Below are positions 9,911 through 32,000 of a stretch of 32,000 nt of DNA, in pieces; the first letter of the stretch is position 1, and every line of letters starts with the position of its first letter. The position numbers were made by a program, and so were the translations under genes. The stretch spans positions 2,040,001-2,072,000 of the forward strand of contig NZ_CP060715.1 in assembly GCF_014396165.1 (NCBI RefSeq). Direction: 5' to 3'. The DNA is from Erysipelothrix inopinata. Its GTDB lineage: Bacteria; Bacillota_I; Bacilli_A; Erysipelotrichales; Erysipelotrichaceae. The notes under the pieces were generated by a model. That model saw only the letters and a program-made list of their open reading frames with translations. It did no database searches and was not told the origin of the DNA.

Positions 9911-10129
9911 TTTTATGACTCTAACCGATGGCTTTGAACTTGGTATTATTTTTACGCAATCCCATTATCTTCACAGACTAAGTTGTGAAAATATAGGCAT
10001 GATTAACTGTGAAATACAGCTTTGGGAGTGGGTTTGTTAAAAGTGTGTAAATTTGTGAATTTCGAGTTGAATTTATTATTGAAATATGAAATTATAGTCT
10101 TGTCCAAATTAAACACACAGGAGGGGACA

Positions 10130-11146
10130 ATGAAAAAAAATCTATTAGTATTCCTAGTCATGATTTTGTTTTTAACAGGTTGTAGCGCAAAAGGTAATGA
10201 TAAAGCATCAAAAAATATTGATGAATTAACGGTCTTTTTCGTTCCAAGCCGTGATCCAAAAGAAATCGCAGCCAAAACTGAACCACTTAAAGCATTGATT
10301 ACTGATCAATTAAAAGAAGAAGGTTACACAATTGGTAATGTGAAGATTGAGATTTCACCAAACTACGAAGCAGCTGGAGAAGCACTTGATGCTGGAAAAG
10401 CACATATTGGTTTCATCCCTGCAAGTACATATGCTTTATACTCAGAAGATAAGAATGTCGATGTTATCTTGGCAGCTTCTAGAGATGGTTTAAACAAAGA
10501 TTCAGAAAATGCTAAAGATTGGAATGATGGTCAACCAACACTTCCAGTTACTGACCAAGTTACATTCTATCGTTCATTAATTTATGCAGGAACATCTTCA
10601 AAAGGACGTGAACTTGCAGAAATCGTAAACAGTGGTAAAAAATTAAGTTGGGACGATTTAAATGGTGCTACATGGTGTCATTCAAATACAACCTCATCTG
10701 CTGGTTATGTATACCCTTCATTATGGTTATCAGAAAACTATGATGGAAAAATGATTGCTGATTTAACAAACAAAGTAGAAGTTACAGGCTACCCAGATAC
10801 TGCAGCACGTCTTGCTACAGGACAATGTGATGTTGGTGTCGGATATGCAGATATTCGCCGTGACTACGAGAAAAACTGGACTGAAGAATGGAAAAAAGAA
10901 AATATCTGGACTGAAGTTGATGTTATCGGAGTTACTGAAGGAATCATGAATGATACAATTTCAGTATCGAACAAACTTGTTGATGATGAATTCAAAAAAG
11001 CACTTCAAAAAACATTTATCGAAATTGCTAAAACAGAAGATGGTAAAAAAGCAATTGAGATTTATAACCACACTGGATATAAAGAAGTCACAGACAAAGA
11101 CTATGACTCATCACGTAAAGTACTCGAGTTATTAAAGAAACAGTAA
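10130..11146 (+). CDS. phnD: PhnD-family (phosphonate/phosphite/phosphate) ABC transporter substrate-binding lipoprotein
   Basis: The start is set at MKKNLLVFLVMILFLTGCSA, which carries a signal peptide with lipobox LTGC and is preceded by AGGAGGGG. The body (VFFVPSRDP ... GKAHIGFIPASTY ... TSSAGYVYP) is PhnD-like. The gene is followed by phnC/E-type genes. Confidence 0.85.
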   Translation: MKKNLLVFLVMILFLTGCSAKGNDKASKNIDELTVFFVPSRDPKEIAAKTEPLKALITDQLKEEGYTIGNVKIEISPNYEAAGEALDAGKAHIGFIPASTYALYSEDKNVDVILAASRDGLNKDSENAKDWNDGQPTLPVTDQVTFYRSLIYAGTSSKGRELAEIVNSGKKLSWDDLNGATWCHSNTTSSAGYVYPSLWLSENYDGKMIADLTNKVEVTGYPDTAARLATGQCDVGVGYADIRRDYEKNWTEEWKKENIWTEVDVIGVTEGIMNDTISVSNKLVDDEFKKALQKTFIEIAKTEDGKKAIEIYNHTGYKEVTDKDYDSSRKVLELLKKQ

Positions 11147-11161
11147 TAGTATTCAGTTCTT

Positions 11162-11183
11162 AAGCGGGGTGACCCGCTTTTTT
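11162..11183 (+). terminator. Intra-operon stem-loop with T-run between phnD and phnC (partial terminator or attenuator)
   Basis: 7-bp GC-rich stem AAGCGGG / CCCGCTT with loop GTGA, followed by TTTTTT. It lies 16 nt after the phnD stop and 18 nt before the phnC ATG. Confidence 0.6.
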
Positions 11184-11200
11184 AAAGTAGGAGAGTTTTT

Positions 11201-11968
11201 ATGATTAAATTTAATAATGTTAGTAAAGTATATCCTAACGGTGTAAAAGCCTTGGATGGTGTTAATTTAGAAATTGAACAAGGTGAGTTTGTCGCAATCA
11301 TCGGCCTATCAGGTGCTGGTAAGTCTACATTACTTCGAAGCATTAATCAGATGCATCCAATCACTGGAGGAGAACTGATCGTAAATGGTCAAGATGTTTC
11401 TTCACTTAGCGGTAAATCACTTCGTAAGTTTCGTCGTCAAATTGGAATGGTATTTCAATCATTTAATCTTGTAAAGCGTACAACAGTTATTAAGAATGTT
11501 CTTACAGCACGTGTCGCGGAAATGCCTTGGTTCAAAAGTTTATTAGGCCTCTATTCAAAAGAAGATACACTTTCTGCTCTTGAGAGCTTGGATCAAGTCG
11601 GAATCCTCGATAAAGCATACAGTCGTGCAGACGAACTTAGTGGTGGTCAACAGCAACGTGTTGCTCTTGCAAGATGTTTGGCGCAGAAACCTCAAATTAT
11701 TCTTGCTGATGAACCAGTTGCTTCATTGGATCCAATTACAGCCCAACAAGTTATGGCAGACTTCGTGAAGATTAATGAGAAAACAAACATTACTGTTATC
11801 GTTAACATGCATCACGTTGATTTAGCACTAAATTATGCCAAACGTGTCATTGGTATCAAGGCAGGTCAAATTGTCTTTGATGGCCCCAGTTCTGAAGTAA
11901 ATGAAGAAGTATTGGAACTTGTGTATGGTCGTTCTCTCAATGATGATGAAATGATGGGAGTGAAGTAA
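11201..11968 (+). CDS. phnC: Phosphonate-type ABC transporter ATP-binding protein
   Basis: Walker A GLSGAGKSTLLR, signature LSGGQQQRVALARCL, Walker B ILADEPVASLDP. The overall PhnC-like N-terminus is IKFNNVSKVYPNGVKALDGV. Confidence 0.9.
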   Translation: MIKFNNVSKVYPNGVKALDGVNLEIEQGEFVAIIGLSGAGKSTLLRSINQMHPITGGELIVNGQDVSSLSGKSLRKFRRQIGMVFQSFNLVKRTTVIKNVLTARVAEMPWFKSLLGLYSKEDTLSALESLDQVGILDKAYSRADELSGGQQQRVALARCLAQKPQIILADEPVASLDPITAQQVMADFVKINEKTNITVIVNMHHVDLALNYAKRVIGIKAGQIVFDGPSSEVNEEVLELVYGRSLNDDEMMGVK

Positions 11969-11969
11969 G

Positions 11970-12791
11970 ATGTCCTTTCTTAAGTCGATACTCTATCCTA
12001 AAAGTATCACTTTAGATAATGGAAAGGTTGTGAAACCACCCATCAGAATGAATGTCATCATTTCAATCATTCTGATTATTCTAATTTATCTAAGTGCAAA
12101 AATTACAGGTTTTAACTTTTCAATGCTTATTCAAGGTGGGAGTGAATTCTTTAAATTCTTAACACGAATGATGCCACCCAACCTCGGGTTTGCTAAAGAC
12201 GTTATGAATCCAATGCTACAAACTTTCGCAATGTCATTTCTCGGTACATTGCTTGCAGCTATCTTTGCCCTTCCTGTGGCATACCTTTCTGCAACCAATA
12301 TGAATCAAAATACCGTTACTCGTACAATTATACGATTTATCATGAGTATTTTTAGAACGATTCCAGTTCTGATTATTGCCTTGATCATGACTTATATTTT
12401 TGGTTTGGGAACCTTTGCCGGAATGATAGCAATCTTCTTATTTACTTTTTCAATTGTTACCAAAATGACTTACGAACAAATTGAAATGGTAGATATGGGA
12501 CCCTTTGAAGCAAGTATTTCTACAGGTGCTTCGCGATTTCAATCATTTATTGCTTCTGTAATACCTCAAATTAGCGGTCTTTACCTTTCGACCATCCTCT
12601 ATAACTTGGAGATGAATATTCGTTCTGCCGCTGTTTTAGGGTATGTAGGTGCTGGTGGAATTGGTACTCTAATGAATCAAAGCATTGGATGGCGTCAATA
12701 TCAAAACCTTGCAACAATTCTACTTATCTTATTGGTAAGTGTCGTCTGCATTGAAGCTTTGAGTCGTCAAATTAGAAAGAGGTTATCGTAA
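11970..12791 (+). CDS. phnE: Phosphonate-type ABC transporter permease (PhnE family)
   Basis: 273-aa polytopic membrane protein with a BPD_transp_1 fold and a PhnE-type C-terminal motif (RSAAVLGYVGAGGIG). The ATG is 1 nt after the phnC stop. Confidence 0.9.
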   Translation: MSFLKSILYPKSITLDNGKVVKPPIRMNVIISIILIILIYLSAKITGFNFSMLIQGGSEFFKFLTRMMPPNLGFAKDVMNPMLQTFAMSFLGTLLAAIFALPVAYLSATNMNQNTVTRTIIRFIMSIFRTIPVLIIALIMTYIFGLGTFAGMIAIFLFTFSIVTKMTYEQIEMVDMGPFEASISTGASRFQSFIASVIPQISGLYLSTILYNLEMNIRSAAVLGYVGAGGIGTLMNQSIGWRQYQNLATILLILLVSVVCIEALSRQIRKRLS

Positions 12792-13594
12792 TGAATCCAA
12801 CAGTTCAAACGGTTTATGATAACCGTCCCAAAAAATACAAAAGAATCATTTTTATTTCTTTAATCGTAGTAGGTATTACCTTATTATCTGTTCCCTATGT
12901 TGATTATAATGGTATTGTTGAAAATGGAATGGATATTGTAAATAGTATTCTTATGGGAATACTCAAACCCAACTGGGAAGTACTCTTCACACTTTCAAAA
13001 GAAGGTGTTCCATATCTCGTATTCGAAACAGTAGCGATTGCATTCTTAGGAACCTTTGTAGGACTTGTCCTTTCAATTCCTATTGCATTTCTATCATCAG
13101 AGAATATTGTCTCTAAGAAATTTTCTTGGATTGGAACTTTCGTAATTACAGTAATCCGTACATTCCCACCTTTTGTTTATGGTCTTATGCTAATAAGAGT
13201 ATCTGGCCCTGGTGCCTTTACAGGTGTTCTTACTCTCGCGATTACTTCAATCGGAATGATATCTAAAATGTTTGTGGAAGTCATTGAAGATTTAGATCAA
13301 GGTATTATTGAATCTTTAGATGCTTCAGGATGTAACACCATTCAAAAAATCCGTTATGGTATAATTCCTCAGTTAATGGGAAACTTTGCTTCAATTTCTA
13401 TCTATCGATTTGAAATTAATGTTAAGAACGCATCAATTTTAGGCCTTGTTGGTGCTGGCGGTATTGGTGCTCCATTACTCTTCGCAATGTCTGGTTTTAG
13501 ATGGGCAGATGCTGGTGCATTACTTTGGGGTCTCATTATCTTAGTTGTTGTTGTTGAAGCATTGTCTTCACGCATCAGATCCAAATTATCATAG
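12791..13594 (+). CDS. phnE: Second PhnE-family ABC transporter permease
   Basis: Paralogous to the preceding gene (KNASILGLVGAGGIG). The start overlaps the upstream stop (TAATG). Confidence 0.9.
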   Translation: MNPTVQTVYDNRPKKYKRIIFISLIVVGITLLSVPYVDYNGIVENGMDIVNSILMGILKPNWEVLFTLSKEGVPYLVFETVAIAFLGTFVGLVLSIPIAFLSSENIVSKKFSWIGTFVITVIRTFPPFVYGLMLIRVSGPGAFTGVLTLAITSIGMISKMFVEVIEDLDQGIIESLDASGCNTIQKIRYGIIPQLMGNFASISIYRFEINVKNASILGLVGAGGIGAPLLFAMSGFRWADAGALLWGLIILVVVVEALSSRIRSKLS

Positions 13595-16281: not shown

Positions 16282-16305
16282 AGAGTATCTCTTACGAGAC
16301 ACTCT
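16282..16305 (-). terminator. Rho-independent terminator after the large surface-enzyme gene
   Basis: 10-bp stem with one G-U pair on the minus-strand RNA (AGAGUGUCUC / GAGAUACUCU) and loop GUAA, followed by UUUU. It lies 6 nt after the stop. Confidence 0.75.
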
Positions 16306-16310
16306 AGAAA

Positions 16311-19300
16311 TTACGATTTTTTAACTTTAATAAATAGAAATCCTAGGAGTATAAATCCAATTCCTATTATATATATTCCACTTGTACTCATTCCGGTCCC
16401 AGGTAATTTACCATTAGGGTATTCAGTTTCTGGAACTTTACCATTATCTCGGACTTTGAGATTGTTCATAGCACTCTTTAAATTTGAATACATCAAATCA
16501 ACCATCTCTTGCGTTGTTTCTTCATTTATATTTTTAATAAAGTCATGTGCTTCTTTTCGAGCGGTTTCAAAAGGAATCCAAGTCAATTCTGTATAATAAT
16601 CTTTATGTTTTAAATCAGATTCCTGAATAAGTTGAATTAAAGAATTCAAATCTATTTGATCAACTTCATTTTGTTTTATTGTAACAATCCGAGTATTACT
16701 TGCTTTAGAATAATTACCAGCCGTATCTTCCGCAACTACCCAGTATTGATAGTTATGTTCTGAGCTAAGATTGGAATCGAGATAATAGAGATTTTCCGTC
16801 GACGCAATTTCGACACCATCGCGATATACATGATATAGCTTGATACCCATATTATCCTCTGATTTGAGCCATTCAATTTGTACACTACTTTGCGATACAA
16901 TATCTACCTTATCTATAACTGGTGCTGTGGGGGCTAGTGTATCTTTGACAGTTGGGGTGAACCAGTTCCCAGATACAACAATCATACTTAACAATCTTAA
17001 ATTATTTCCAAAATATACTTCATCTTGAGTATCTGCAGAAGCATTTAAATCCCACAGGTCATTTAACCATGTCTGATGATCTGCGTGCATCATTGCGCTC
17101 ACCATGAATGGCGCCGTAAAGGTTAAATCTTGCCAATCACCTACAACTTCTCCATTTAATGTAAATCCCGATTTAATTTCGTTTACATCATCACTTGTTG
17201 ATTCTCTTAGCCATCTATTCAGAGTTTCCAGTTGACTATATGCACGTTTTTCTCCTGTAACTAAATAATCAGTTGCTAGTCTCCATGGAGTTCGAGCTGA
17301 GTTGTAGTAATAATTTCCATCATTTTCAGATTCTAAAAATTCCGAAGGCGCAGGAATATGTTTTCCCTCATCTAAAACAATAAAATCCGGTAACAGACCT
17401 GTATCTGTACTATATTCTTTATAAATAGTTTCAGATAGTTCGTAGGTATTATTAATCACGTTATCCCAACGCACATCTCCACTCACTATTCTAAAATCTT
17501 TAAGATGTTGCATCATCCAATCAGATGGACGTGTTGCTCCAAGATACTTATCACTATTTGCCCAATCAGCAAGATTAAGGGTCCACCTTTCATGGTCTAC
17601 TTCGCTTTCCATAATAGCATCAATAACTTTTCTAGCTTCCGTTAAGTAATTAATATTACCCAAGCTTCCCCACTGTTCATGGGCAAGTATTAGTGAATAA
17701 GCGATATCCATATCACCATCAATTGCTGAATCAGCGCCATTGATATCTACAATAACTCCATCAACTAACCCTTGTTGCCAAGCCATTAGATTAGAGTTTA
17801 TTTCTGATGGATGTGCCTTAAAATATCTAAACATCGCATCATAATCAGATTGAGTATGATTATATTGATTTGCCATCATCGCTAATATTATCATTCCATA
17901 ACCATGAGCTTCCGAAACCGTAATTTCATTGTCCTCATAGTCATCGGGATTTCCGTCAGAATACCAAACATACTTCTGATCAATATTATTTGGATCTACT
18001 TTTAAATACTTTTGCTTCCACTCAGTGAATAGTCTTTGTACTGTCTGATCCATTTCTTCCTGACTAATATGATTTGGTCTAATTGAATCCGATACGTAGC
18101 GAGTATGCTGAGGAAAACTTCGTCCAATATGTCCTTCAAGAGTCATAATGATAACTTTATCTGATTTTTGAGATTCGATGTCCTCATCGTTCACTGCTGA
18201 TACCTCGTAATTATAATTGGTTTTCTGAAGCAGTCCTGAATCTCTAAAGCTCGTAGAACGCGAAATTCCAATGAAAACATTATCTCTATATATTTTATAA
18301 TACTTAATGCCTGTATCACTAATACTAGATTCCCAAGAAATTTCAACTTCATACTGACTTATTGCTTTTCCTATAACATTTTTAGGTGTCGTAGGAGGTT
18401 CATTTCCCTCTTGCTGTGAATTAATAATAATACTTGATACCTGTCCATTCGTACGGATTCCAACCGGTACGACATTGAACGAGTACTTAATATTCGGATT
18501 TATTTTATCAATTTTCAAATGAATATTATCTTCATCAGTCTCAATATACTGAGACCAGTGAGTTCCCATTTTATCGTTACTTTCATACACTCTATATCCA
18601 CGAACCGGAGCACCTTTATCTGGTTTACTCCAACTTAGTTCCAGCTCATCATTATTCGCGGTATAAGTAAGGTTAGAGATTTGATTAGGAGCTTCGTCTG
18701 TTCTGACAATTCCATATTTATCATATTCAACCAAACCATCACCAACCGTATTTGCTTTCCCCTCGTCCTCAACGGCTGCTGTATAAGAAGTCATTGTTAG
18801 GATGTTTTCACTAATTCCCATATCTGTAAACATTTTTTTAAATGGTTGTTCATCGATAGCAGCAAAGAAATCGTCATAAGGAATTGGTTTTCCATCTTCT
18901 CCAATTATTTCGACTGCATCCCAATTTTCATCCAAATAGTGTTGGTTATTTTTTGTATAAAATTTATTCCCCAATGCATTTGGCATTAAATAGACAGTTC
19001 CCTTTGGATTAATATAATTACCGTCTGAATCTTTCTCAATACTTTCGAATGGAATTACTTCATTTCCGAGCATTTGAAAAGATCTCATGTACATATGGTC
19101 ATGTGCTTCAAAAACCATATCTATAGCCAGCTCATCAAATACAGGAATAAGATGCTTTCGATAGAATTGAACGCGTTCATCTTCCCATTGAGCCGAGTTA
19201 TCGCCTGCTGCATAAGGGGACTTATGGAATGTTACAAACTTCCATTTCTTTTCTGACTTAGCTACTGTATGCCGCATCCAGTCAACTTGTGCCCTAAACT

Positions 19301-20510
19301 CTGAATCTTCCCAAGCTATATATTCGCCATTTTCAGCAAGACCACCTTCAAATTGAGAGTTAAAAACCATGAAAAGAGCATCTCCATATTCGTATGAGTA
19401 AACGGAACCATCATGAGTTCCCTCTACTACATTTCTTTCCAAGTTAAAGTGGTTATAAAAATTATTATTTTCAGTAGTAACATCCCCATCATAATCGTTT
19501 ACCTCGTGTCCTCCTAAAACAGGAACAAAAGGAACATTTAGAAGCGAATCTTCTGCGACACTTAACATATATTGCCAATGTGATTCTAAATCACCATTAT
19601 CTACAAGATCTCCCGCAAGAATTAAAAACTTAGGGTCGTCAATATGATTTCGTGCTTTTCTAAAAGTATCTGCCCATGGTTTAAAGTTTTCAAGAGATGA
19701 AGCTTGGGAATCTGCTCCTACAATAAAATGAAAGCTTGAGTTTTCTTCTGTATCAGTGGTGAAAGAACCGATTTTTGACCATTCAAAACCATTTCCCAGA
19801 CGGAATCGGTATTGTGTTCCAGGCTTTAAATCTAGAGCATCAACTTTATGAGAATAAAAAACATGCTTATTATCAGTTTTTCGATCATTTTCGTCAAGAT
19901 ACGTCTCTACTCTATCACTAATCCCTTTGTAAACTTGATATGAATCAAGAGGAAACTTCTCATCAATAACTTGAGACGCTTCTACTATTTGAACGATTGA
20001 TTCAGTATTTGAGTCAGTATACCACGCAAATCCCATTGATGTTTTCGGAGATTTTGCAAAGGTCATATTCATGAGTTTAGGAATAAAAGGTGAAACCTGT
20101 GTTTCGAACGACCAGATTACATCCCGCACTAATTTTTGATTATCCGTTCCCTCCAATGACTCCTTATTAATTCTAACTGTATACTCTTCTCCAAAATTCA
20201 ATGTTTCGTGATTGATTTTAATTTTGTTATTTTCAATTTCAAAAGTTATATTTGGGATATGTCCTTTATTTCCGATCATCGTGATATTATCTGATACTAA
20301 TTTTATATCATAATTAAATGTTGCTTCTATCTTTGTATCTTCCGATACTTTTTTTGCACCATTAACTGGAAGAACATTAAGATCGCGGATAGGCTCAGAA
20401 ATTTCTGAGTCATTGATTCGTAATCCTTCTATTTTAACTTCTTTAATTCGATTTGAACCATAACCTCCAATGTCTCCCCGCTCGTACTTACTGCAGTGTG
20501 TTTCTTCCAT
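16311..20510 (-). CDS. Body of an LPXTG-anchored multi-domain surface enzyme with no signal peptide in this frame. Domain order: Ig-like domain, purple-acid-phosphatase N-domain, calcineurin-like metallophosphoesterase, 2x FN3, glycoside hydrolase family 8, FN3, FIVAR-like helical domain, LPGTG anchor
   Basis: - Metallophosphoesterase motifs: GADSQ, GDLVDNGD, GGHE, FHKSPY, AHDHMY (about 19071-19736).
- GH8: catalytic-acid context TVSEAHGYGM and the family signature ADSAIDGDMDIAYSLILAHEQW (domain about 16956-18116).
- Three FN3-like modules with W..S and Y.Y.V patterns.
- The FIVAR-like segment reads YYTELTWIPFETARKEAHDFI ... TQEMVDLMYSNLKSAMNNL.
- The sortase signal LPGTG is at 16392-16406, followed by a TM helix and a KVKKS tail. 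Confidence 0.85.
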   Translation of the reverse strand: MEETHCSKYERGDIGGYGSNRIKEVKIEGLRINDSEISEPIRDLNVLPVNGAKKVSEDTKIEATFNYDIKLVSDNITMIGNKGHIPNITFEIENNKIKINHETLNFGEEYTVRINKESLEGTDNQKLVRDVIWSFETQVSPFIPKLMNMTFAKSPKTSMGFAWYTDSNTESIVQIVEASQVIDEKFPLDSYQVYKGISDRVETYLDENDRKTDNKHVFYSHKVDALDLKPGTQYRFRLGNGFEWSKIGSFTTDTEENSSFHFIVGADSQASSLENFKPWADTFRKARNHIDDPKFLILAGDLVDNGDLESHWQYMLSVAEDSLLNVPFVPVLGGHEVNDYDGDVTTENNNFYNHFNLERNVVEGTHDGSVYSYEYGDALFMVFNSQFEGGLAENGEYIAWEDSEFRAQVDWMRHTVAKSEKKWKFVTFHKSPYAAGDNSAQWEDERVQFYRKHLIPVFDELAIDMVFEAHDHMYMRSFQMLGNEVIPFESIEKDSDGNYINPKGTVYLMPNALGNKFYTKNNQHYLDENWDAVEIIGEDGKPIPYDDFFAAIDEQPFKKMFTDMGISENILTMTSYTAAVEDEGKANTVGDGLVEYDKYGIVRTDEAPNQISNLTYTANNDELELSWSKPDKGAPVRGYRVYESNDKMGTHWSQYIETDEDNIHLKIDKINPNIKYSFNVVPVGIRTNGQVSSIIINSQQEGNEPPTTPKNVIGKAISQYEVEISWESSISDTGIKYYKIYRDNVFIGISRSTSFRDSGLLQKTNYNYEVSAVNDEDIESQKSDKVIIMTLEGHIGRSFPQHTRYVSDSIRPNHISQEEMDQTVQRLFTEWKQKYLKVDPNNIDQKYVWYSDGNPDDYEDNEITVSEAHGYGMIILAMMANQYNHTQSDYDAMFRYFKAHPSEINSNLMAWQQGLVDGVIVDINGADSAIDGDMDIAYSLILAHEQWGSLGNINYLTEARKVIDAIMESEVDHERWTLNLADWANSDKYLGATRPSDWMMQHLKDFRIVSGDVRWDNVINNTYELSETIYKEYSTDTGLLPDFIVLDEGKHIPAPSEFLESENDGNYYYNSARTPWRLATDYLVTGEKRAYSQLETLNRWLRESTSDDVNEIKSGFTLNGEVVGDWQDLTFTAPFMVSAMMHADHQTWLNDLWDLNASADTQDEVYFGNNLRLLSMIVVSGNWFTPTVKDTLAPTAPVIDKVDIVSQSSVQIEWLKSEDNMGIKLYHVYRDGVEIASTENLYYLDSNLSSEHNYQYWVVAEDTAGNYSKASNTRIVTIKQNEVDQIDLNSLIQLIQESDLKHKDYYTELTWIPFETARKEAHDFIKNINEETTQEMVDLMYSNLKSAMNNLKVRDNGKVPETEYPNGKLPGTGMSTSGIYIIGIGFILLGFLFIKVKKS

Positions 20511-21025
20511 CGAATATAGACTAATGATTCATTATCGAAAATTGATGGCAACTCTTTCTGGTTCAATCTTGATTCATTTGTATATTTTTCTTTGCTCATT
20601 ACTAACGTTTCATCATCAATATTTTCCCAATTTGTACCATCTAAACTTGCCTGAATTTTAAAATCTTTAGGTCCTGATCCTGAAGAAGTTTGACTCGAAG
20701 ATAGTTTCAAATTTTTATATCCAAGTGTTGGAACAATCATTAACCAGTATTGTTCTACTTCTTCATCAGCACTCCAACCCCAATAGCTTAGAGTTCCTTG
20801 AGAATCTACACCTTCCAAATAAGGACCTCCCTTCGCTTCAAACGTCGCGGAGCTTCGGTATTGTCCATTTTGTGCTCGATAGACACCATGCTTGCTCTCT
20901 TCTTTAAAAGTAAACTCGGCAATTAAATCTGATTTTGCCTCATCTGCATGTGCAATCGGAATGCTTGCAACGCTTAAAGCTACAATCAACAATAAAACTC
21001 TCAATTTTTTGAGAATGTATTTCAT
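20429..21025 (-). CDS. Signal-peptide-bearing N-terminal module of the same surface protein, in a different reading frame (frameshifted 5' segment)
   Basis: - MKYILKKLRVLLLIVALSVASIPIAHADE is a Sec signal peptide behind RBS AGGAGGG.
- It is followed by a roughly 150-aa beta-rich module (GPKDFKIQASLDGTNWENI).
- The ORF overlaps the 16311-20510 ORF by 82 nt in another frame.
- Its last 15 codons look like out-of-frame read-through. Confidence 0.7.
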   Translation of the reverse strand: MKYILKKLRVLLLIVALSVASIPIAHADEAKSDLIAEFTFKEESKHGVYRAQNGQYRSSATFEAKGGPYLEGVDSQGTLSYWGWSADEEVEQYWLMIVPTLGYKNLKLSSSQTSSGSGPKDFKIQASLDGTNWENIDDETLVMSKEKYTNESRLNQKELPSIFDNESLVYIRWKKHTAVSTSGETLEVMVQIELKKLK

Positions 21026-21107
21026 AATTCCCTCCTACGGACTGATAGCCCTTTCTTCACTAGCCTATCAAACCTTAACTCTTTCAACAATCTTCTCAAC
21101 CATCGTT

Positions 21108-21119
21108 TGAACTAGTACA
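21108..21119. promoter_or_regulatory. Operator-like site TGAACTAGTACA (11 of 12 match to the TGTACTAGTACA palindrome) upstream of the surface-enzyme gene
   Basis: Located 83 nt upstream of the ATG at 21025 and immediately downstream of the MocR-gene terminator. It shares ACTAGTACA with the perfect palindrome at 22533-22544. Confidence 0.45.
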
Positions 21120-21123
21120 AAAA

Positions 21124-21144
21124 AACATCACCTAAAGTGATGTT
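21124..21144 (-). terminator. Rho-independent terminator of the MocR-type regulator gene
   Basis: 8-bp stem AACATCAC / GTGATGTT with a 5-nt loop that includes the stop codon, followed on the minus strand by TTTTTTT. Confidence 0.7.
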
Positions 21145-22484
21145 AAATAAACCTCATTAATAATTTCATAGAGTAGTGTCAGCGCTTTAGAAACCTGTTT
21201 AATCTTAATTCGAGACATTGAGATACGTATCGAGTTGTCATAATCGTCTTTATTGTAAAATGCCATTCTATTAGAAGAAACAATAATCGAGTTTTTTTCA
21301 CATTCACGAATCAGTTGTTCAACATCGATTACTTTTGATAATCTAATTGTTGAGTAGTATCCACAGTCCCCACCTATATGTTCTGCTATTTTTGAGTCCC
21401 ATTTTCGTGTAACTTCACGAGCAATTTTAAGTTTTTGTGTTAAACTATCTGACACTGATTGAGCATTTGTGACTAAAATATCTGATCTTACTGCTGCCTC
21501 TAATGTCGCTTGCGATACTAAATCCGGCATATGATATGATAAAAAATAGTTTTCATCTGCTGCTTCGGAAAACGAATCCGTTAAATCATCTGGGACTACA
21601 ACATACCCAATTCTAATATATGGAAATAACTTAGAATATGATTTCATATAAATACAATTTTTAAAATCAGAAAAATAATATAGTGGCGAATATTTCGGAA
21701 TTGCATAAGAATCATTGAAGTAATCATCCTCAACAATATACACTTCATATTGATGTGCAAGTCGAACAATTTCTTTTCGTTGTGAATGACTCAGAGCAGT
21801 TCCTAATGGATTGTGATTTCGAGGGACAATATAGAAAAACTTTATAGATTCTTCTTTAAATATACGTTCTAACTCAACTAAGTCAATACCCTCTTCGTTG
21901 CGGTTAATTGTAACAACGTCTAATCCGAGTGAATGCATCATTTCATTACAAAATGTATATGTTGGAGATTCTAAAAGAACTCGTGTATTACCGTTTGGAA
22001 ATTCCATTCTTGATAATACAGATACGGTTTGTATTACGCCTTGAGTTAAGAAAAAATTCTCGGTTTTGCAGTAGATATCATAATTTTCAAGATGATCAAC
22101 CATCAGTTCATTTAAGGATGACATTCCACGAACATCTGATTCCAACGAATTATTTCTATATAAATCAACAGCAATATTTAAAACATGTTTTGCTTCGATA
22201 ATAGAAAAAGTATCAACGGTAGGATTCCCTGTTCCTAAATCCATTATATTTCCATTCTCTTCTTCATCCCTTAATAAATCGTCCGCAACGTAGAATCCGC
22301 TATTTGCTTTGGAGTACACTATATGTTCGTAGCGCAATATATCAAATGCTTTTATCACTGTTCCCTTACTACAATTATACTCTTTCGAAAGAAATCGTAT
22401 TGATTCAAATCGCTCTCCAGGTAAAATTTCTCCATTAAGTATCTTATTTTTTAAGTCGTGTGCTATTTTCTCATACTTTAACAT
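21132..22484 (-). CDS. MocR-subfamily GntR transcriptional regulator (N-terminal wHTH fused to a fold-type I aminotransferase-like PLP domain)
   Basis: - GntR HTH: KYEKIAHDLKNKILNGEILPGERFESIRFLSKEYNCSKGTVIKAFDILRYEHIVYSKANSGFYV.
- The aminotransferase-fold part retains the PLP-binding landmarks: NHNPLG, VEDDY, and SYSK with K285 (21630-21632), followed by IRIGYVV. Confidence 0.9.
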   Translation of the reverse strand: MLKYEKIAHDLKNKILNGEILPGERFESIRFLSKEYNCSKGTVIKAFDILRYEHIVYSKANSGFYVADDLLRDEEENGNIMDLGTGNPTVDTFSIIEAKHVLNIAVDLYRNNSLESDVRGMSSLNELMVDHLENYDIYCKTENFFLTQGVIQTVSVLSRMEFPNGNTRVLLESPTYTFCNEMMHSLGLDVVTINRNEEGIDLVELERIFKEESIKFFYIVPRNHNPLGTALSHSQRKEIVRLAHQYEVYIVEDDYFNDSYAIPKYSPLYYFSDFKNCIYMKSYSKLFPYIRIGYVVVPDDLTDSFSEAADENYFLSYHMPDLVSQATLEAAVRSDILVTNAQSVSDSLTQKLKIAREVTRKWDSKIAEHIGGDCGYYSTIRLSKVIDVEQLIRECEKNSIIVSSNRMAFYNKDDYDNSIRISMSRIKIKQVSKALTLLYEIINEVYLTSL

Positions 22485-22532: not shown

Positions 22533-22544
22533 TGTACTAGTACA
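22533..22544. promoter_or_regulatory. Perfect 12-bp palindrome TGTACTAGTACA in the divergent MocR / PTS IIC intergenic region (candidate operator)
   Basis: All 6 positions are self-complementary. The site lies 49 nt upstream of the regulator ATG and overlaps the -35 position of a minus-strand TACAAT box (22512-22517). It is 92 nt upstream of the IIC ATG. Confidence 0.55.
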
Positions 22545-22635
22545 AACGCTTGTTGATGCAATTGCTTGTAAGTTGCTTTCACGTTAACTTATAGGTGTAA
22601 GGGCTAACAGCTCATTAGAGGAGGAGAAATATTAC

Positions 22636-23961
22636 ATGACAAATCTCATGGAGAAATTTGCATCATGGCTTGAAGAACACTTCTTGCCTATAGCAAGTGC
22701 AATTGGTAACCAGAGACATTTAGTAGCATTACGTGATGGTTTTATTGCAACAATGCCAGTAAGTATGTCTGGTGCATTAGTTGTTATGTTTAAAGAAGTA
22801 ATTTTTACTTCTGAATCGTTATTCGGAACTATGCTTAACAAACTAAGCTTTTATGCCGAAAATATTCAACCCGTGCTTGACCGAACACTTGTACCGGTAT
22901 TGGAGCAAATGTGGTGGGGAACACTTGCTCTTGGTATTATATTTAGTGTGTTTACGATTGCTTATAAACTTGCTGAGCATTATAAACAAGATGCACTATC
23001 TGCTGGTGTTCTCGCAGTGGTATCTTATTTAATACTATTACCACAAGCAGTCGAAGGCGGAGAATGGGGTACAATTTCTTGGACATCATTCAACTCGGAA
23101 GCTATATTTACCGGATTAATTGTTGCCATGATTTCTACAGAAATCTTTAACTGGGTAGTAAACAAGGGCTGGACGATAAAAATGCCAGACAAAGTACCAC
23201 CAGCAGTATCAAAAGCATTCTCTGCTATGATTCCAGCATTCTTTGTATTAACCTTCTTTGGTATCGTTTCAGTATGTTTCCAAGAAGGTCTTGGAATACC
23301 AATGCAACAGTTCATCAATAATGCTATTCAGGTTCCACTAACAAAATTAGGTCAGTCACCATTTACATTTATATTGCTAGTATTTATTGCCCAAATATTA
23401 TGGTTCTTTGGTCTTCATGGAATCACAATTATCGGTCCTGTTTTAGACACAATGTATTCACCAGCTCTTGCAGCAAATGCAGAAGCTATTATGATTAAAG
23501 GAGTCGCTCCTACAAATGCAATCACACGTAACATGTTAGACTTATATGGTATGCATGGCGGCAGTGGTGCAACACTAGCTCTGATTATTGCTATATTCTT
23601 AGTATCAAAAAGAACCGAATACAAATCATTGGCTAAGATGTCTTTAATGCCAGGGGTTTTCCAAATTAATGAACCAATTATTTATGGATTGCCAATTGTA
23701 TTAAATCCAATTTTAGCAATTCCATTTATTATTATTCCACCAATAACAGTATTTATTGGTTGGTTATTTACTGCTGTAATACCGTTTGCCGGTTTCGTTT
23801 ACATTGATCCACCTTGGGTCGTTCCACCTGTACTTAATGCATTCCTTGCAACAGGAGGAGATATAAAAGCTGCAATTCTAGCATTCGCCACTTTAGTTAT
23901 AGCAATACTAATTTACATGCCATTTATTATGATTGCTAACAAAATGGAAGATTCTATCTAA
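22636..23961 (+). CDS. PTS sugar transporter subunit IIC, lactose/cellobiose/chitobiose (Lac) family
   Basis: 441-aa polytopic protein. The N-terminus LPIASAIGNQRHLVALRDGFIATMP and the later FFGLHG and NEPIIYGLPIVLNP are hallmark motifs of CelB/LicC/ChbC-type IIC. RBS GAGGAGGAG lies upstream. Confidence 0.93.
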   Translation: MTNLMEKFASWLEEHFLPIASAIGNQRHLVALRDGFIATMPVSMSGALVVMFKEVIFTSESLFGTMLNKLSFYAENIQPVLDRTLVPVLEQMWWGTLALGIIFSVFTIAYKLAEHYKQDALSAGVLAVVSYLILLPQAVEGGEWGTISWTSFNSEAIFTGLIVAMISTEIFNWVVNKGWTIKMPDKVPPAVSKAFSAMIPAFFVLTFFGIVSVCFQEGLGIPMQQFINNAIQVPLTKLGQSPFTFILLVFIAQILWFFGLHGITIIGPVLDTMYSPALAANAEAIMIKGVAPTNAITRNMLDLYGMHGGSGATLALIIAIFLVSKRTEYKSLAKMSLMPGVFQINEPIIYGLPIVLNPILAIPFIIIPPITVFIGWLFTAVIPFAGFVYIDPPWVVPPVLNAFLATGGDIKAAILAFATLVIAILIYMPFIMIANKMEDSI

Positions 23962-24009: not shown

Positions 24010-25326
24010 TTAGTTATGAAACTGTGGTAAGAAATCTTTATGTGCTTCCATCAATTCTGATACTACTCGATTTGCCAATGCATCACTGGGGCATAATGGA
24101 TTCGAACTCAATGCAGTAACAGCTAAATCATAATCACCTGTAACCGCAGCTTCACAAACCATTCTTTCAAATGATTTGATTGTTTGAATTGTACCATTAA
24201 TCTTGGGATTTAATTCCCCAACTGCAATCGGTTTTGGACCATCTGAAGTGATGACACACGCTACCTCAATTGCACTATCAAGTGGCAAGTTAGTGATTGC
24301 CCCATTGTTACGTACATTTACATATTGAATGTCACAGGAATTATTATGAATTGAATGAATCAAACTACAGGCTGCATCAGAGTAATGTGCCCCGCCACGT
24401 TGTTCTAGTTGTTTTGGTTTAACTTTAAGAGATTGATCTTTATAAAGTTCAAAAAGTTCATCTTCAAGTTTTTTTACAACTTCCCCTCTTACTGTGCCTG
24501 TTTTAAACTCTTCGAGTTGAGTATTGAGTTGTTCTTCAGTGAAGTAATAGTAGTTATGGTAAGGACAAGGTATCGCACCAAGACCTCTTAAAAATTCTGG
24601 CGAATAAGAGAGTGCTTCAAAGTTTTTCATAGCCAGCGCTTTTTCACTCTCTTCAGTATATTTATCAATCACTTTATCTAGAATAGATGCCCCTTTATGA
24701 TAGACATCAGTAACGAATACATGATGGTTTACACCACTAAGCTCCATTGAAATTTCCTCAGGATCTAATTCTAACATATCTGCGAAAGTGTGTTTCATAT
24801 CAAAAGGAACGTTACATAAACCAATGACCTTTTTAAAATTTGTATACCTCAAGACTGCTTCCGTAACCATACCTGCAGGATTCGTAAAATTAATCAACCA
24901 TGCATCAGGACAAAGCTCCTCCATGTCTTTAACAATTTCCAAAATGACAGGAATAGTTCTAAATGCTTTGAACATTCCCCCCGCCCCATTTGTTTCTTGA
25001 CCAATCATACCATGTGATATTGGAATTCTCTCATCTAGTATTCTTGCTTGAAGCTGCCCCACTCGCATTTGCGTTGTTACATAGTCTGCATCTTTTAAAG
25101 CTTCTTTTCGGTCATAGCTTAAGTGAATTGTCATATTTACACCAGCTTCTTCAACCATCCGCTTTGCTAACGCTCCTACAATCTCTAATTTTTCCCTACC
25201 CTCTTCTATATCAACCAGCCACAATTCACTAATTGGTAACTCTCTATGTCTTAAAATGAATCCCTCAACCAATTCTGGAGTATATGAACTACCTCCACCA
25301 ATAGTAACTACTTTAATTTTTTTCAT
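24010..25326 (-). CDS. GH4 6-phospho-beta-glucosidase (LicH/CelF/ChbF-like, NAD+/Mn2+-dependent)
   Basis: It is near-colinear with LicH-type enzymes (KVVTIGGGSSYTPELVEGFI, GQETNGAGG, NFTNPAGMVTEA, GLCNVP, GVNHHVF, RGGAHYSDAA). The start is set at MKKIKVV (25326) behind GGAGGAAAAACA, immediately after the ROK stop codon. Confidence 0.95.
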   Translation of the reverse strand: MKKIKVVTIGGGSSYTPELVEGFILRHRELPISELWLVDIEEGREKLEIVGALAKRMVEEAGVNMTIHLSYDRKEALKDADYVTTQMRVGQLQARILDERIPISHGMIGQETNGAGGMFKAFRTIPVILEIVKDMEELCPDAWLINFTNPAGMVTEAVLRYTNFKKVIGLCNVPFDMKHTFADMLELDPEEISMELSGVNHHVFVTDVYHKGASILDKVIDKYTEESEKALAMKNFEALSYSPEFLRGLGAIPCPYHNYYYFTEEQLNTQLEEFKTGTVRGEVVKKLEDELFELYKDQSLKVKPKQLEQRGGAHYSDAACSLIHSIHNNSCDIQYVNVRNNGAITNLPLDSAIEVACVITSDGPKPIAVGELNPKINGTIQTIKSFERMVCEAAVTGDYDLAVTALSSNPLCPSDALANRVVSELMEAHKDFLPQFHN

Positions 25327-26213
25327 TGTTTTTCCTCCGTTTTCATACAATAATAGGCTGCACCAATCTTGCCAGCATCATTATGATGTTTACAAACATC
25401 AATATTCCATATTTTATAATATGGGGTCATTTTCTGAAGTGCACTTTTAACATCTTGAATTAGTTTAGATGATGCACTGACACCACCACCCAATAAAATT
25501 GTATCGGGATCTATTGAAAACGCGATGTTGTAAATTCCTGTACTGAGACAACGTATCCATTCATCGTATATTTGGAGCAATGGTTCGTTTTCTGAGCTTA
25601 ATAGTTCAAATACATTCCTCCCTGAAAATTCGCCATCGGAAATACCAAATAATTTAGATACTTTATTCACCAATGCCTCAGTTGCACTATTCTCGCTCAT
25701 AATTTCATAGTCAGTATAATTACTAAATTCTTTTGTTATCATATATCCAAACTCGCCTGCCATAAAATTACTCCCATGATATAATTGGTTGTTGATGATT
25801 ATTCCTCCACCAATTCCACTTCCAATTGTGATACAAACTAAATTGCTACTTCCTACACCATTACCCGTCCAGTGTTCAGCTAAGGTGGCACAGTTCGCAT
25901 CATTTTCGAGAACAGTACGGATTCCAGTACGTTGTTCAATGATTTCTCCTAGATATTTATTTGATAGAGTTGGAATTGCTCCTCCCTCTATAATTATTCC
26001 AGAATCAGTATTTACAGCTCCCGGAATACTTAATCCTATTCCGTCTAAATCTGAATATTTGGATACTATTGTATCAATAATGTCTAGTATTTCTTCAAAG
26101 TTATCTCGAACACTTTTAATCGGTCTCGGGTCGTGAACGAGTGAATTTCCAAGTTCATCATACAGCCCATGTTTGATTTCAGTTCCACCGATATCAATTC
26201 CTAAATATCTCAT
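25323..26213 (-). CDS. ROK-family sugar kinase (no N-terminal HTH, so a kinase rather than a repressor)
   Basis: The protein begins directly with the ATP-binding motif MRYLGIDIGGTEIK, and has ROK glycine-rich motifs (LENDANCATLAE, GSGIGGGIII) and GEFGY. It is 296 aa. Confidence 0.9.
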   Translation of the reverse strand: MRYLGIDIGGTEIKHGLYDELGNSLVHDPRPIKSVRDNFEEILDIIDTIVSKYSDLDGIGLSIPGAVNTDSGIIIEGGAIPTLSNKYLGEIIEQRTGIRTVLENDANCATLAEHWTGNGVGSSNLVCITIGSGIGGGIIINNQLYHGSNFMAGEFGYMITKEFSNYTDYEIMSENSATEALVNKVSKLFGISDGEFSGRNVFELLSSENEPLLQIYDEWIRCLSTGIYNIAFSIDPDTILLGGGVSASSKLIQDVKSALQKMTPYYKIWNIDVCKHHNDAGKIGAAYYCMKTEEKQ

Positions 26214-26282: not shown

Positions 26283-26294
26283 TGTACCAGTACA
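26283..26294. promoter_or_regulatory. Operator-like site TGTACCAGTACA (TGTAC-NN-GTACA) upstream of the ROK-GH4 operon
   Basis: Both 5-bp arms are identical to the palindrome at 22533-22544. It lies 70 nt upstream of the ROK ATG, upstream of a TTGTAG-17-TATCAT promoter candidate on the minus strand. Confidence 0.5.
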
Positions 26295-31200: not shown

Positions 31201-32000
31201 AATCTCAGGTGTATACCCTGGTACTGTATCTTCAGTCACAGTATAGGTAATCAATTGACCACCTTTGTATTCAGGTTGATTTGCAAAGGTATAGCTCCAT
31301 GAGTGTTCACCTTTAATCCATGTAGGTTCTGCCGTTACTTCTTCGCCATTTGCATAGAGTGTAATTTTGATTTCTTCAGGTCGGATGCCATCTTGGTTCT
31401 TATTATCGTCCCATGTCTTCGTACCTGTCACATCAATCTTACTTGGTGTATGACTGTTTGTAATGTTGAGTCCTTGAATATCTGTTGTGTAGTGTTCGAC
31501 AGCTTCTTCAGTTACGGTATATTCAATATCCACACCATTTTCTTTTTCAGGTAAATTTTCAAATGTATAGGTCCAAGTATTTTCTGCCTTGGTCCATGTT
31601 GGTTTAAGATTAAGCTCTGCACCATTGGCATGAAGTTTAACTGTAATCTCTTCGGGTCTGAATCCTGCGATATTGCTTGCATCATCCCATGTCTTAACCC
31701 CTGTTACGGATCGTGTATCAGCTTTATGACTGTTTGTGATATCTAAGCCTGTAATCTTAGGTGTATAGCCTGGCACTGTATCTTCAGTCACAGTATAGGT
31801 AATCAATTGACCACCTTTGTATTCAGGTTGTCCTGCAAAGGTATAGCTCCATGAGTGTTCACCTTTAACCCATGTTGGTTCTGCCGTTACTTTTTCACCA
31901 TTTGCATAGAGTGTAATTTTGATTTCTTCAGGTCGGATGCCATCTTGGTTCTTATTATCGTCCCATGTCTTCGTTCCTGTCACATCAATCTTACTTGGTG
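28240..32000 (-). CDS. Very large LPXTG-anchored surface protein made of CnaB-type (collagen-adhesin B-repeat) domains. Only the C-terminal part, more than 1250 aa, is in the window
   Basis: - Thirteen consecutive 92-aa modules follow the pattern GTKTWDD.N.DG.RP..I.V.LYANGE ... W.Y.F..LP ... YTVTE..V.GY ... ITN.
- The modules are followed by a PEKPNPEKPKP linker.
- The anchor is LPGTG (28342-28356), a TM helix and a charged tail.
- The frame stays open to the window edge. The M at 31983 in the ORF track is a GTG inside the repeat (..PSKIDVTGTKTW). Confidence 0.92.
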   Translation of the reverse strand, partial: PSKIDVTGTKTWDDNKNQDGIRPEEIKITLYANGEKVTAEPTWVKGEHSWSYTFAGQPEYKGGQLITYTVTEDTVPGYTPKITGLDITNSHKADTRSVTGVKTWDDASNIAGFRPEEITVKLHANGAELNLKPTWTKAENTWTYTFENLPEKENGVDIEYTVTEEAVEHYTTDIQGLNITNSHTPSKIDVTGTKTWDDNKNQDGIRPEEIKITLYANGEEVTAEPTWIKGEHSWSYTFANQPEYKGGQLITYTVTEDTVPGYTPEITGLDITNSHKADTRSVTGVKTWDDASNIAGFRPEEIEITLYANGEKVNAEPSWTKAENTWTYEFANLEVKENGVDIEYTVTEEAVEHYTTDIQGLNITNSHTPSKIDVIGTKTWDDNKNQDGIRPEEIKITLYANGEEVTAEPTWVKGEHSWSYTFAGQPEFKGGQLITYTVTEDTVPGYTPKITGLDITNSHKADTKVVTGIKTWDDASNIAGFRPAEIEITLYANGEKVNAEPTWTKAENTWTYEFANLEVKENGVDIEYTVTEEAVEHYTTDIQGLNITNSHTPSKIDVTGTKTWDDNKNQDGIRPEEIKITLHANGEEVTAEPTWVKGEHSWIYTFAGQPEYKGGQLITYTVTEDTVPGYTPKITGLDITNTHKADTKVVTGVKTWDDASNIAGFRPEEIKITLYANGEKVNAEPTWTKAENTWTYEFANLDVKENGVDIEYTVTEEAVEHYTTDIQGLNITNSHTPSKINVEGTKTWKDSSDQDGKRPETIVVTLYANGEKVDTDAVWSQTDEDVWNYVFADQPEYKGGELIEYTVKEDDVVGYTTKIEGLNITNSRATEVRTITGTKVWNDNDNQDGIRPENIVVKLIANGKKLEVKPEWIKNGNTWSYKFANLPKYANKEIINYVIEELGVDGYTAKITDYNLVNTHEVSLINIEGTKTWDDHKNQDGIRPEAVEVALYANGEKVDVKPVWTQTEGDVWHYVFENQPEFKAGEKITYTVDETEVAGYVKGIEGYSITNTHKPSVVEIKGQKEWVDESNQDGLRPEAITVTLFKNGEAQDVKAQWTKAENTWSYTFGELPEYENGEKLVYTITEEAVAGYSSVVNGLNLVNTHEVSLIDLEGQKIWDDNSNKENKRPESITVNLYANGEKVDVKPEWTKGNDTWNYTFKSLPEFKAGAKIIYTVDEEAVANYESAIDGFTITNTVKETVDPEKPNPEKPKPTLPGTGVASDGTLVLAGLASIIGGLKLRSKSRKKEEEEA
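29776..32000. repeat. Tandem DNA repeat, 552-bp unit (two alternating CnaB module types, A and B), at least 4 copies and continuing beyond the window
   Basis: Protein modules A1-B1 to A4-B4 are nearly identical. Spurious plus-strand ORFs recur at 30199, 30751 and 31303, which is exactly 552-nt spacing. Long identical nucleotide strings recur, for example ggtcgaataccatcttggttcttattatcgtcccatgtcttcgtacc. Confidence 0.9.

Follow-up and report, generated by a model that had tools for sequence, protein, structure and literature searches.

What brings a phosphoesterase and a glycoside hydrolase together on one cell wall-anchored polypeptide, how did such a gene come to stand beside a sugar uptake cassette, and does it still encode an intact protein? 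These questions are raised by a gene at positions 16311 to 21025 (minus strand) of a 32,000-nucleotide (nt) stretch of the Erysipelothrix inopinata genome (RefSeq assembly GCF_014396165.1, contig NZ_CP060715.1, positions 2,040,001 to 2,072,000), which we call the window. An earlier reading of the letters and open reading frames (ORFs) of the window, here termed the sequence-only reading, had described a chimeric enzyme joining a purple acid phosphatase (PAP)-like metallophosphoesterase to a glycoside hydrolase of family 8 (GH8). We conclude that the gene probably encodes a horizontally transferred, sortase-anchored PAP-like/GH8 exo-enzyme placed under the regulator of an older beta-glucoside cassette and that the frame break within it is most probably an assembly error. 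What the locus would add is a foreign surface enzyme gene drawn into a MocR sugar regulon, with a palindrome before each unit.

Two catalytic domains on one predicted surface protein

The GH8 assignment was upheld by a Pfam profile, by matches to solved structures, and by an intact catalytic pair. The Glyco_hydro_8 profile (PF01270) matched with 82.5 bits (E of 3.7e-23, cut-off of 24). Comparison with the sequences in the PDB gave E values of 2.6e-117 for the glucanase 5xd0, ~1e-80 for the chitosanases 7cju and 1v5c, and 3e-37 for 1cem (CelA), with alignments spanning residues 6 to 395 of the 396-residue query (389 residues for 5xd0). Enzymes of the ChoK type use Glu122 as the proton donor and Glu309 as the base (PMC9615241), and the alignment pairs these two residues with the Glu in SEAHGYGM and the first of those in FLESEND, respectively (positions counted from the alignment). 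Since both catalytic Glu residues are intact, the domain looks catalytically competent. In the signature block, ADSAIDGDMDIAYSLILAHEQW, Ile stands where 5XD0, ChoK, and the Paenibacillus consensus have the Thr of SATDGD; the sister Erysipelothrix sequence has Val there. Judging from sequence similarity, glucans with beta-1,4 or mixed linkages are the likeliest substrates, and chitosan is a possible one. Cel8Pa, which is 95.6% identical to 5XD0, acts best on barley beta-glucan, followed by lichenan, phosphoric acid-swollen cellulose, and carboxymethyl cellulose, and is much less active toward chitosan and xylan (PMC7490527).

The metallophosphoesterase assignment held by profile, with PF16656 and PF00149 both above their cut-offs (Table 1), and the predicted fold is PAP-like. 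The AlphaFold2 (AF2) model of the module, built from 35 homologs, had a predicted local distance difference test (pLDDT) score of 89.7 and a predicted template modeling (pTM) score of 0.91. Foldseek ranked a plant purple acid phytase and plant phosphatases first (E of ~1e-23, template modeling [TM] score of 0.68 to 0.73, ~15% identity), followed by PhoD and mammalian PAPs. By both PF16656 and the top-ranked folds, the module therefore has the two-part fold of a PAP. A PDB sequence search with the module gave no match, and a profile of full-length homologs was swamped by GH8, FN3, and SLH matches; the fold search was used for the module instead.

Every motif quoted in the sequence-only reading is present (GADSQ, GDLVDNGD, GGHE, FHKSPY, AHDHMY, SEAHGYGM, the GH8 signature, and LPGTG), and all five metallophosphoesterase motif blocks can be located, but block III reads GGHE instead of GNH[DE]. 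This GGHE is invariant in every close homolog, with or without GH8; a sister clade at ~53% identity reads GNHE. A scan of 1.84 billion representatives returned 7351 related clusters. Motif III could be scored in about 120 of the 146 top superfamily representatives scanned; 108 had only GNH[DE], and GGHE occurred only in the closest clade.

The remaining modules are arranged largely as first described. An Ig-like domain (Big_5) is present, but a module of about 190 residues that lies between it and the signal peptide had gone undescribed. The AF2 model of this N-terminal module is a beta-sandwich (pLDDT of 93.1, pTM of 0.90) with weak Foldseek matches to many carbohydrate-binding modules (CBMs) (E of 4e-5 to 1e-3, TM score of 0.4 to 0.5). 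Its matches to the Pfam F5/8 type C family (CBM32/discoidin), at 19.7 to 23.8 bits, fall below the cut-off of 28.2. The module is conserved throughout the family and is present in 20 of the 25 loci that lack GH8 (see below).

At the other end, the protein has the features of an LPXTG surface protein: a signal peptide (in the upstream frame of the RefSeq assembly), a complete sorting signal in which LPGTG is followed by 21 mostly hydrophobic residues and then KVKKS, and a sortase gene elsewhere in the genome (C1:600631-601008; PF04203, 86.5 bits). The NCBIfam LPXTG subfamily match of the tail is below threshold. These features agree with the proposed sortase-anchored architecture, the anchoring being predicted. 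The helical domain ahead of LPGTG had been called FIVAR-like. Its direct match to FIVAR covers profile positions 4 to 70 of 71 without reaching the cut-off (E of 0.025; 15.6 bits against 29.2), but it shares 39% identity with the tail of a further LPXTG protein encoded in this genome, and that tail contains two FIVAR repeats (E of 1.4e-14, 54.9 bits). The helix can therefore be called FIVAR-like only transitively. The protein that shares the tail is very large (a 1817-aa open frame at G000:C1:~995,900-1,001,330; L003) and ends in two FIVAR repeats and LPGTG.

Spread of the family and likely horizontal transfer

The sequence-only reading did not recognize the pairing as a described architecture. 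This stands for the biochemical literature, where a search for papers pairing GH8 with a metallophosphoesterase or a purple acid phosphatase found none that characterizes the fusion and a search for Erysipelothrix found nothing relevant, but not for the sequence databases, where dozens of species carry it. The PAP-GH8 fusion is common in Paenibacillus and occurs also in Cohnella, in Lederbergia, and in one Bacillus sp. record; Microbacterium and Propionibacteriaceae carry it at ~40% identity. Family members usually end in SLH repeats and are annotated as "glycosyl hydrolase family 8" or "licheninase." The phosphoesterase and GH8 occur together in 54 of 79 species loci, mostly of Paenibacillus, and the other 25 have the phosphoesterase module without GH8 within flanks of 8 to 10 kb. 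Some Paenibacillus loci have one or two separate GH8 genes directly upstream of the fusion gene, giving up to three GH8 domains (clusters L043:4737-15676 and L011:7866-14791). In Paenibacillus pinisoli, a LacI regulator gene lies between them.

Within Erysipelothrix, the full-length gene was found in 2 of 28 species genomes of the genus (the source genome, G000, and G136). A sample of 120 further genomes of the family yielded no instance of it. The closest named relative, at 76% identity and with the same gene order, comes from a metagenome-assembled genome (MAG) labeled Erysipelothrix sp. (L006). In a maximum likelihood tree of the phosphoesterase module (one module only, midpoint rooted), the two Erysipelothrix sequences stand beside Lederbergia and a Paenibacillus subclade with support of 100/100 and nest deep within the Paenibacillus radiation. 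Because of this nesting and because only 2 of the 28 genomes carry the gene, it was likely acquired by horizontal transfer. The 39% identity of its tail to the FIVAR-scoring LPXTG tail of the same genome suggests that an SLH anchor was replaced by a host-type FIVAR-LPXTG tail after acquisition.

A shared operator-like site and leader tie the gene to a sugar cassette

Next to the enzyme gene are genes for a MocR-type regulator, an enzyme IIC component (EIIC) of a phosphotransferase system (PTS), a ROK sugar kinase, and a GH4 glycosidase, which the profiles did not place in a subtype (Table 1). A TGTAC-NN-GTACA palindrome is found at 21108-21119 (with one mismatch), 22533-22544, and 26283-26294, that is, ahead of the enzyme gene, between the MocR and EIIC genes, and upstream of the ROK-GH4 operon. 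The 2.2-Mb genome has exactly two copies of an extended, 22-nt form of the palindrome, one preceding the enzyme gene and the other preceding EIIC, and both of these sites are kept in the 76% relative. The operator-like site by which the sequence-only reading had connected the enzyme gene to the PTS/GH4/ROK genes thus proved real: the palindrome is shared, its 22-nt form occurs at two sites, and these are conserved in the 76% relative.

The likeness extends further: in both enzyme-carrying species, the ~100 nt ahead of the enzyme gene align with those ahead of EIIC. Within the aligned stretch, next to the ribosome-binding site, is a second box, AAGGGCTAWCAG, which might be another site for a protein or an RNA element of the leader. 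In the form AAGGGCTA(T/A)CAG, this box is located just 5' of the ribosome-binding sites of the enzyme gene (21033-21060, minus strand) and EIIC (22595-22625, plus strand) and is conserved in the 76% relative.

The MocR-EIIC-ROK-GH4 cassette is also found in two other species of the genus (genomes G130 and G122). In both, the enzyme gene is absent and a single perfect palindrome stands between the MocR and EIIC genes. Because the cassette and its palindrome are present there without the enzyme gene, the cassette appears to be older than the arrival of that gene. We infer that the foreign gene was inserted beside the MocR gene with a copy of the EIIC operator and 5' leader, and the MocR protein is the likely binder of the palindromes. 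The locus would then show cleanly how a foreign surface enzyme can be re-anchored (LPXTG in place of SLH) and brought under a regulator already resident in the genome by way of a copied operator and leader.

Proposed mode of action and the role of the phosphoesterase

With the MocR regulon switched on, the enzyme would be exported and fixed to the wall. Its GH8 domain, going by its close relatives, would cut soluble beta-1,4 or mixed-linkage beta-glucan, or possibly chitosan, beside the cell. The resulting oligosaccharides would enter through the Lac/Cel-type EIIC or be phosphorylated by the BglK-like kinase, and the GH4 enzyme would then split them. The CBM-like N-terminal partner would probably direct the phosphoesterase to a glycan-associated phosphate ester or anhydride. 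The likelihoods that we give to three roles of the phosphoesterase (scavenging, concerted action, or none in catalysis) are not mutually exclusive with this core account.

The two activities may be merely codisplayed, with phosphate scavenging and glucan depolymerization carried out independently on one anchored scaffold and no common substrate. This is possible, although we doubt it. Stand-alone versions of the phosphoesterase are common, it has the fold of the plant PAPs and phytases, enzymes that scavenge phosphate broadly, and the domains follow one another like beads on a string, separated by FN3 spacers. However, the GH8 fusion is retained in more than 50 species belonging to three phyla-level groups, which exceeds what chance codisplay would predict, and in the source genome the gene is located in a sugar regulon and not in an evident phosphate regulon. 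The recurrence of the PAP-GH8 linkage argues for some functional coupling, while the 25 loci without GH8 indicate that the module can work alone.

In a concerted attack, which the sequence-only reading preferred, the phosphoesterase would strip a phosphodiester or phosphate substituent, or a polyphosphate counterion, from the polymer that GH8 cleaves. Putative substrates would include bacterial cellulose carrying phosphoethanolamine, phosphorylated beta-glucan, and complexes of chitosan with polyphosphate in the walls of Mucorales. We consider concerted action unlikely, even though the PAP-like module and GH8 share one polypeptide in 54 of the 79 species loci, several Paenibacillus loci add one or two GH8 genes directly upstream, a CBM-like module accompanies the phosphoesterase in nearly all loci, and GGHE is restricted to the clade that holds all GH8 fusions. 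There are sugar-specific phosphodiesterases known to remove zwitterionic phosphate groups from glycans, but they have a different fold (PMC10704324). On the other side, the module functions alone in the 25 loci without GH8 within 8 to 10 kb, and two FN3 spacers totaling ~200 residues separate the catalytic domains. The Paenibacillus neighborhoods showed no phospho-glycan gene or Pho-type signal. A search for phosphate-related partners around the 79 loci found none, the recurring neighbors being AraC and LacI regulators, sugar ABC permeases, two-component systems, and GH8 genes.

In its most specific form, which we give an equally low chance, the concerted mechanism would make the CBM-guided, GGHE-type module a glycan-directed phosphodiesterase or phosphoanhydridase that clears a beta-1,4-glycan of phosphate-bearing decorations or counterions for cleavage by the fused GH8. 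The decorations might be phosphoethanolamine on the cellulose of bacterial biofilms or polyphosphate attached to fungal chitosan. If true, this would define a two-step "dephosphorylate, then depolymerize" enzyme class with a mononuclear or retuned metal site. If the domains do cooperate, more than 50 species would have a new route for degrading phosphate-decorated or phosphate-complexed beta-glycans, with a bearing on biofilm matrix turnover, fungal wall degradation, and enzyme discovery.

The frame break is very likely an assembly error

The sequence-only reading treated the gene as one reading unit. This was not borne out in the RefSeq assembly, where positions 16311 to 21025 form two ORFs that overlap by 82 nt, split at a run of four G residues on the coding strand (20476-20479). 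A search of protein collections nevertheless returned an intact 1571-aa protein (P0003), which reads across the ORF junction as ...AVSTSGGDIGGYGSNRIKEVKIEG. It is encoded, with identical neighboring genes, in two Logan assemblies of separate sequencing runs (L004 from SRR11123319 and L005 from ERR14335473). The window aligned with 20.7 kb of the first and 17.3 kb of the second with zero mismatches and a single gap each, at the run, which has five G residues in both assemblies. A further 19.9 kb aligned with L096, also from ERR14335473, with zero mismatches and one 2-nt deletion in the genome. There, at C1:2038931, the genome lacks two bases (AT) present at L096:12771-12772, which breaks the frame of a cysteine synthase-like (PALP) gene ~1.07 kb ahead of the first base of the window, with no substitution close by. 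About 22 kb around fusA is identical between the genome and both runs. In total, ~62 kb was compared with the two runs, giving 0 substitutions and 2 small indels, both frame-breaking. A third run, SRR11123321, differs from the genome by 151 substitutions in 14.6 kb. SRR11123319 and ERR14335473 are therefore of the same strain as the RefSeq genome, since they show no substitutions against it whereas SRR11123321 shows 151. The completeness of the closed genome is 94.6%; among the six other single-contig genomes of the genus, five are at 99% and the sixth is at 94%. In the same comparison, there is a possible tandem repeat copy number difference of ~190 nt between G000:C1:1227205-1227228 and L108:7294-7460, where the alignment with the ERR14335473 assembly breaks into two pieces, overlapping by 167 nt on the contig and separated by 22 nt in the genome.

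Because indels without substitutions are the signature of consensus errors, this assembly-to-assembly comparison makes it very likely that the run of four G residues is an assembly error. Were it real, the gene would be a pseudogene or phase variable, yielding a secreted 198-aa fragment and an enzyme body that, lacking a signal peptide, stays unexported. The sequence-only reading had itself raised the prospect of an inactive pseudogene. The break is indeed present in the window as given and falls in a homopolymer, a classical slippage site, and the second frame-breaking indel, in the cysteine synthase-like gene nearby, could equally mark decay of a laboratory stock. An inactive gene is improbable nonetheless: two independent assemblies without any substitution against the genome have five G residues, consensus errors typically take the form of indels with no substitutions, a run of 4 to 5 G residues is short for phase variation, the rest of the 4.7-kb coding sequence is undamaged, and the 76%-identical ortholog is intact. 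We rejected programmed frameshifting and phase variation on the shortness of the run, the second, unrelated 2-nt indel nearby, and the five G residues in both assemblies. An assembly error here would also be a warning that the closed assembly carries small indel errors, which bears on every pseudogene call made from it.

The metal site of the phosphoesterase

In the kidney bean PAP, the metal ligands are Asp135, Asp164, Tyr167, Asn201, His286, His323, and His325 (PMC2267794). We mapped these by motif register, not by superposition. Asp135 (in GADSQ), Asp164 (the first D of GDLVD), His286 (in FHKSPY), and both His323 and His325 (in AHDHMY) are kept, while Tyr167 is replaced by Asp (the last D of GDLVD) and Asn201 is replaced by Gly (in GGHE). 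The claim of the sequence-only reading that all metal ligand motifs are present is thus right for the five blocks and wrong for two of the seven PAP ligands. With five of seven ligands kept and both replacements found in the window and in all close homologs, the module is PAP-like by fold and not a purple acid phosphatase by its ligands; the replacement of Tyr by Asp means that it would not be purple.

Among 35 sequences that are 50 to 87% identical to the module, the five kept ligands never vary, nor do the His adjoining the lost Asn and many of the surrounding residues. Because the kept ligands and so many of their neighbors do not vary, the module probably has an active site under selection with a retuned metal center and is predicted to be active. 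Asp is the normal residue at the PAP Tyr position in many nonPAP metallophosphoesterases. That the module ceased to be a hydrolase with the loss of its Tyr and Asn ligands and now has a binding or structural role is very improbable: two of its seven canonical ligands are replaced and no solved structure matches it by sequence, but the family-wide invariance just described is that of a selected active site, and an Asp in place of the Tyr is no departure from what many other metallophosphoesterases have.

Weighing the account

Several points weigh against the account that we prefer, of a transferred, active, wall-anchored enzyme in the MocR regulon. The direction of transfer is read from a midpoint-rooted tree of one module, and the gene has the same GC content as its surroundings. 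Regulation by MocR is predicted from gene position and palindrome shape only, and the amine-sensing type of MocR domain could point to chitosan over glucan as the substrate. An identity of 55 to 60% cannot predict GH8 substrate specificity. In PAPs, Asn201 is a ligand of the second metal and also contacts the substrate (PMC2267794); the change to Gly drops that ligand, so the module could be weakly active, mononuclear, or not a phosphatase. There is a small chance that the frame break is a recent true mutation in the sequenced stock, and the second indel, a 2-nt loss outside a homopolymer, is less typical of sequencing error.

The conserved coupling of PAP and GH8 and the GGHE metal site are the points most worthy of experiment. 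The conserved change from Asn to Gly is a natural test of how far binuclear metallophosphoesterases tolerate the loss of a ligand.

Coordinates and other features of the window

The features of the locus are listed in Table 1. FN3 domains 1 and 2 together score 65.8 bits against Pfam fn3 over two stretches; the region of domain 2 also has a sub-threshold match to the RGI_lyase beta-sheet (residues 722 to 783), and the NCBIfam CbhB model matches the same stretch as FN3 domain 3. Elsewhere in the window, a phosphonate/phosphate-type ABC importer (PhnD-like binding protein, ATPase, and two permeases) is encoded at 10022-13594 (plus strand), ~3 kb beyond the enzyme gene, and a surface protein gene with 13 Cna_B repeats (Pfam, 987.7 bits) occupies 28240-31983 (minus strand) and runs off the end of the window.

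Table 1. Features of the enzyme gene and its surroundings, in window coordinates. Residue numbers of Pfam matches are those of the 1399-aa downstream ORF. HTH, helix-turn-helix.
Feature	Position	Strand	Basis
Whole enzyme gene, 1571-aa product	16311-21025	-	ORF list; intact protein P0003 100% identical
Upstream ORF, 198 aa (start, signal peptide, beta-rich N-terminal module)	20429-21025	-	
Downstream ORF, 1399 aa (remainder of enzyme)	16311-20510	-	
Frame-break site, G4 on coding strand versus G5 in other assemblies	20476-20479	-	Sequence
Signal peptide MKYILKKLRVLLLIVALSVASIPIAHA	20945-21025	-	Read from translation: basic N terminus, hydrophobic core, AHA motif
N-terminal CBM-type beta-sandwich, ~190 residues, spanning frame break	20382-20944	-	AF2, Foldseek
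Big_5 bacterial Ig-like domain	20100-20375	-	PF13205, residues 46-137, 35.3 bits (cut-off 23.6)
PAP-like metallophosphoesterase module	18693-20093	-	PF16656 and PF00149, AF2, Foldseek
PAP N-domain	19755-20075	-	PF16656 Pur_ac_phosph_N, residues 146-252, 57.5 bits (cut-off 30)
Catalytic core	19089-19688	-	PF00149 Metallophos, residues 275-474, 45.6 bits (cut-off 21.5)
GADSQ motif	19704-19718	-	
GDLVDNGD motif	19590-19613	-	
GGHE motif	19503-19514	-	
FHKSPY motif	19212-19229	-	
AHDHMY motif	19089-19106	-	
Beta-rich C-terminal extension of phosphoesterase module	to 18693	-	
FN3 domain 1	18432-18680	-	PF00041, best stretch, residues 611-693
FN3 domain 2 (approximate limits)	18138-18377	-	Second fn3 stretch
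GH8 catalytic domain	16956-18122	-	PF01270, residues 856-1177
GH8 acid Glu, in SEAHGYGM	17892-17915	-	
GH8 signature block ADSAIDGDMD	17706-17735	-	
GH8 base Glu, in FLESEND	17319-17339	-	
FN3 domain 3	16704-16934	-	fn3_2, residues 1193-1269, 25.1 bits (cut-off 27)
FIVAR-like helical domain	16458-16643	-	Sub-threshold Pfam FIVAR; likeness to other LPXTG tail
Sorting signal: LPGTG (16392-16406), hydrophobic stretch, KVKKS, stop	16311-16406	-	Read directly
Terminator-like hairpin 3' of enzyme gene	16282-16305	-	
Operator-like site before enzyme gene, TGTACTAGTTCA, one mismatch, conserved flank	21096-21119		
MocR-type regulator (GntR HTH and aminotransferase-like)	21132-22484	-	Pfam; NCBIfam MocR-like matches all sub-threshold
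Perfect palindrome TGTACTAGTACA, same flank, between MocR and EIIC genes	22533-22556		
PTS EIIC, lactose/cellobiose family	22636-23961	+	Pfam; TIGR00410, 362 bits (cut-off 236)
GH4 glycosidase	24010-25350	-	Pfam
ROK sugar kinase without HTH	25323-26213	-	Pfam; best NCBIfam match, beta-glucoside kinase BglK, sub-threshold
Third palindrome TGTACCAGTACA, upstream of ROK-GH4 operon	26283-26294		

Comparison with known systems

The plant PAPs and phytases (kidney bean PAP, wheat PAPhy b2, and lupin PPD1) share with the phosphoesterase module an N-terminal FN3-like domain and a metallophosphoesterase core. They differ from it in that the chromophoric Tyr is Asp here and the Zn/Mn-binding Asn is Gly. 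The module also has an extra beta-rich C-terminal extension and is part of a bacterial, predicted surface-anchored protein, fused to CBM, Ig, FN3, and GH8 modules.

For the GH8 domain, the best match among solved structures is BGlc8H of Paenibacillus sp. X4 (5XD0), considered here with Cel8Pa of Paenibacillus xylanivorans; both are endo-beta-1,4-glucanases with a broad specificity and have the same Glu pair and signature block. Their predicted products, cello-oligosaccharides, fit the Lac/Cel EIIC, the BglK-like kinase, and the GH4 enzyme encoded beside the enzyme gene. However, they are secreted single-domain proteins of ~400 residues (PMC7490527), while the GH8 domain here lies inside a 1571-aa anchored phosphoesterase protein. 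The chitosanase ChoK of Bacillus sp. K17 (1V5C/1V5D) and related GH8 chitosanases come second (E of ~1e-80). Glu122 and Glu309 of ChoK align, but the similarity is below that to the glucanases, and chitosanase activity of the enzyme is no more than a possibility.

The true family members are the GH8/licheninase proteins of Paenibacillaceae (1400 to 2300 aa; e.g., P. pinisoli, P. etheri, and Lederbergia panacisoli), which are 50 to 60% identical to the enzyme over ~90% of its length and have the same module order. We found no characterized member among them. The family is thus widespread and annotated, with no characterization found, and what is new is the predicted LPXTG-anchored, MocR-wired form. 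The Paenibacillaceae proteins end in SLH repeats or without an anchor, and their genes have AraC or LacI regulators, ABC permeases, and additional GH8 genes nearby, whereas the Erysipelothrix enzyme ends in the FIVAR-like helix and LPGTG and its gene is located in a MocR/PTS cassette.

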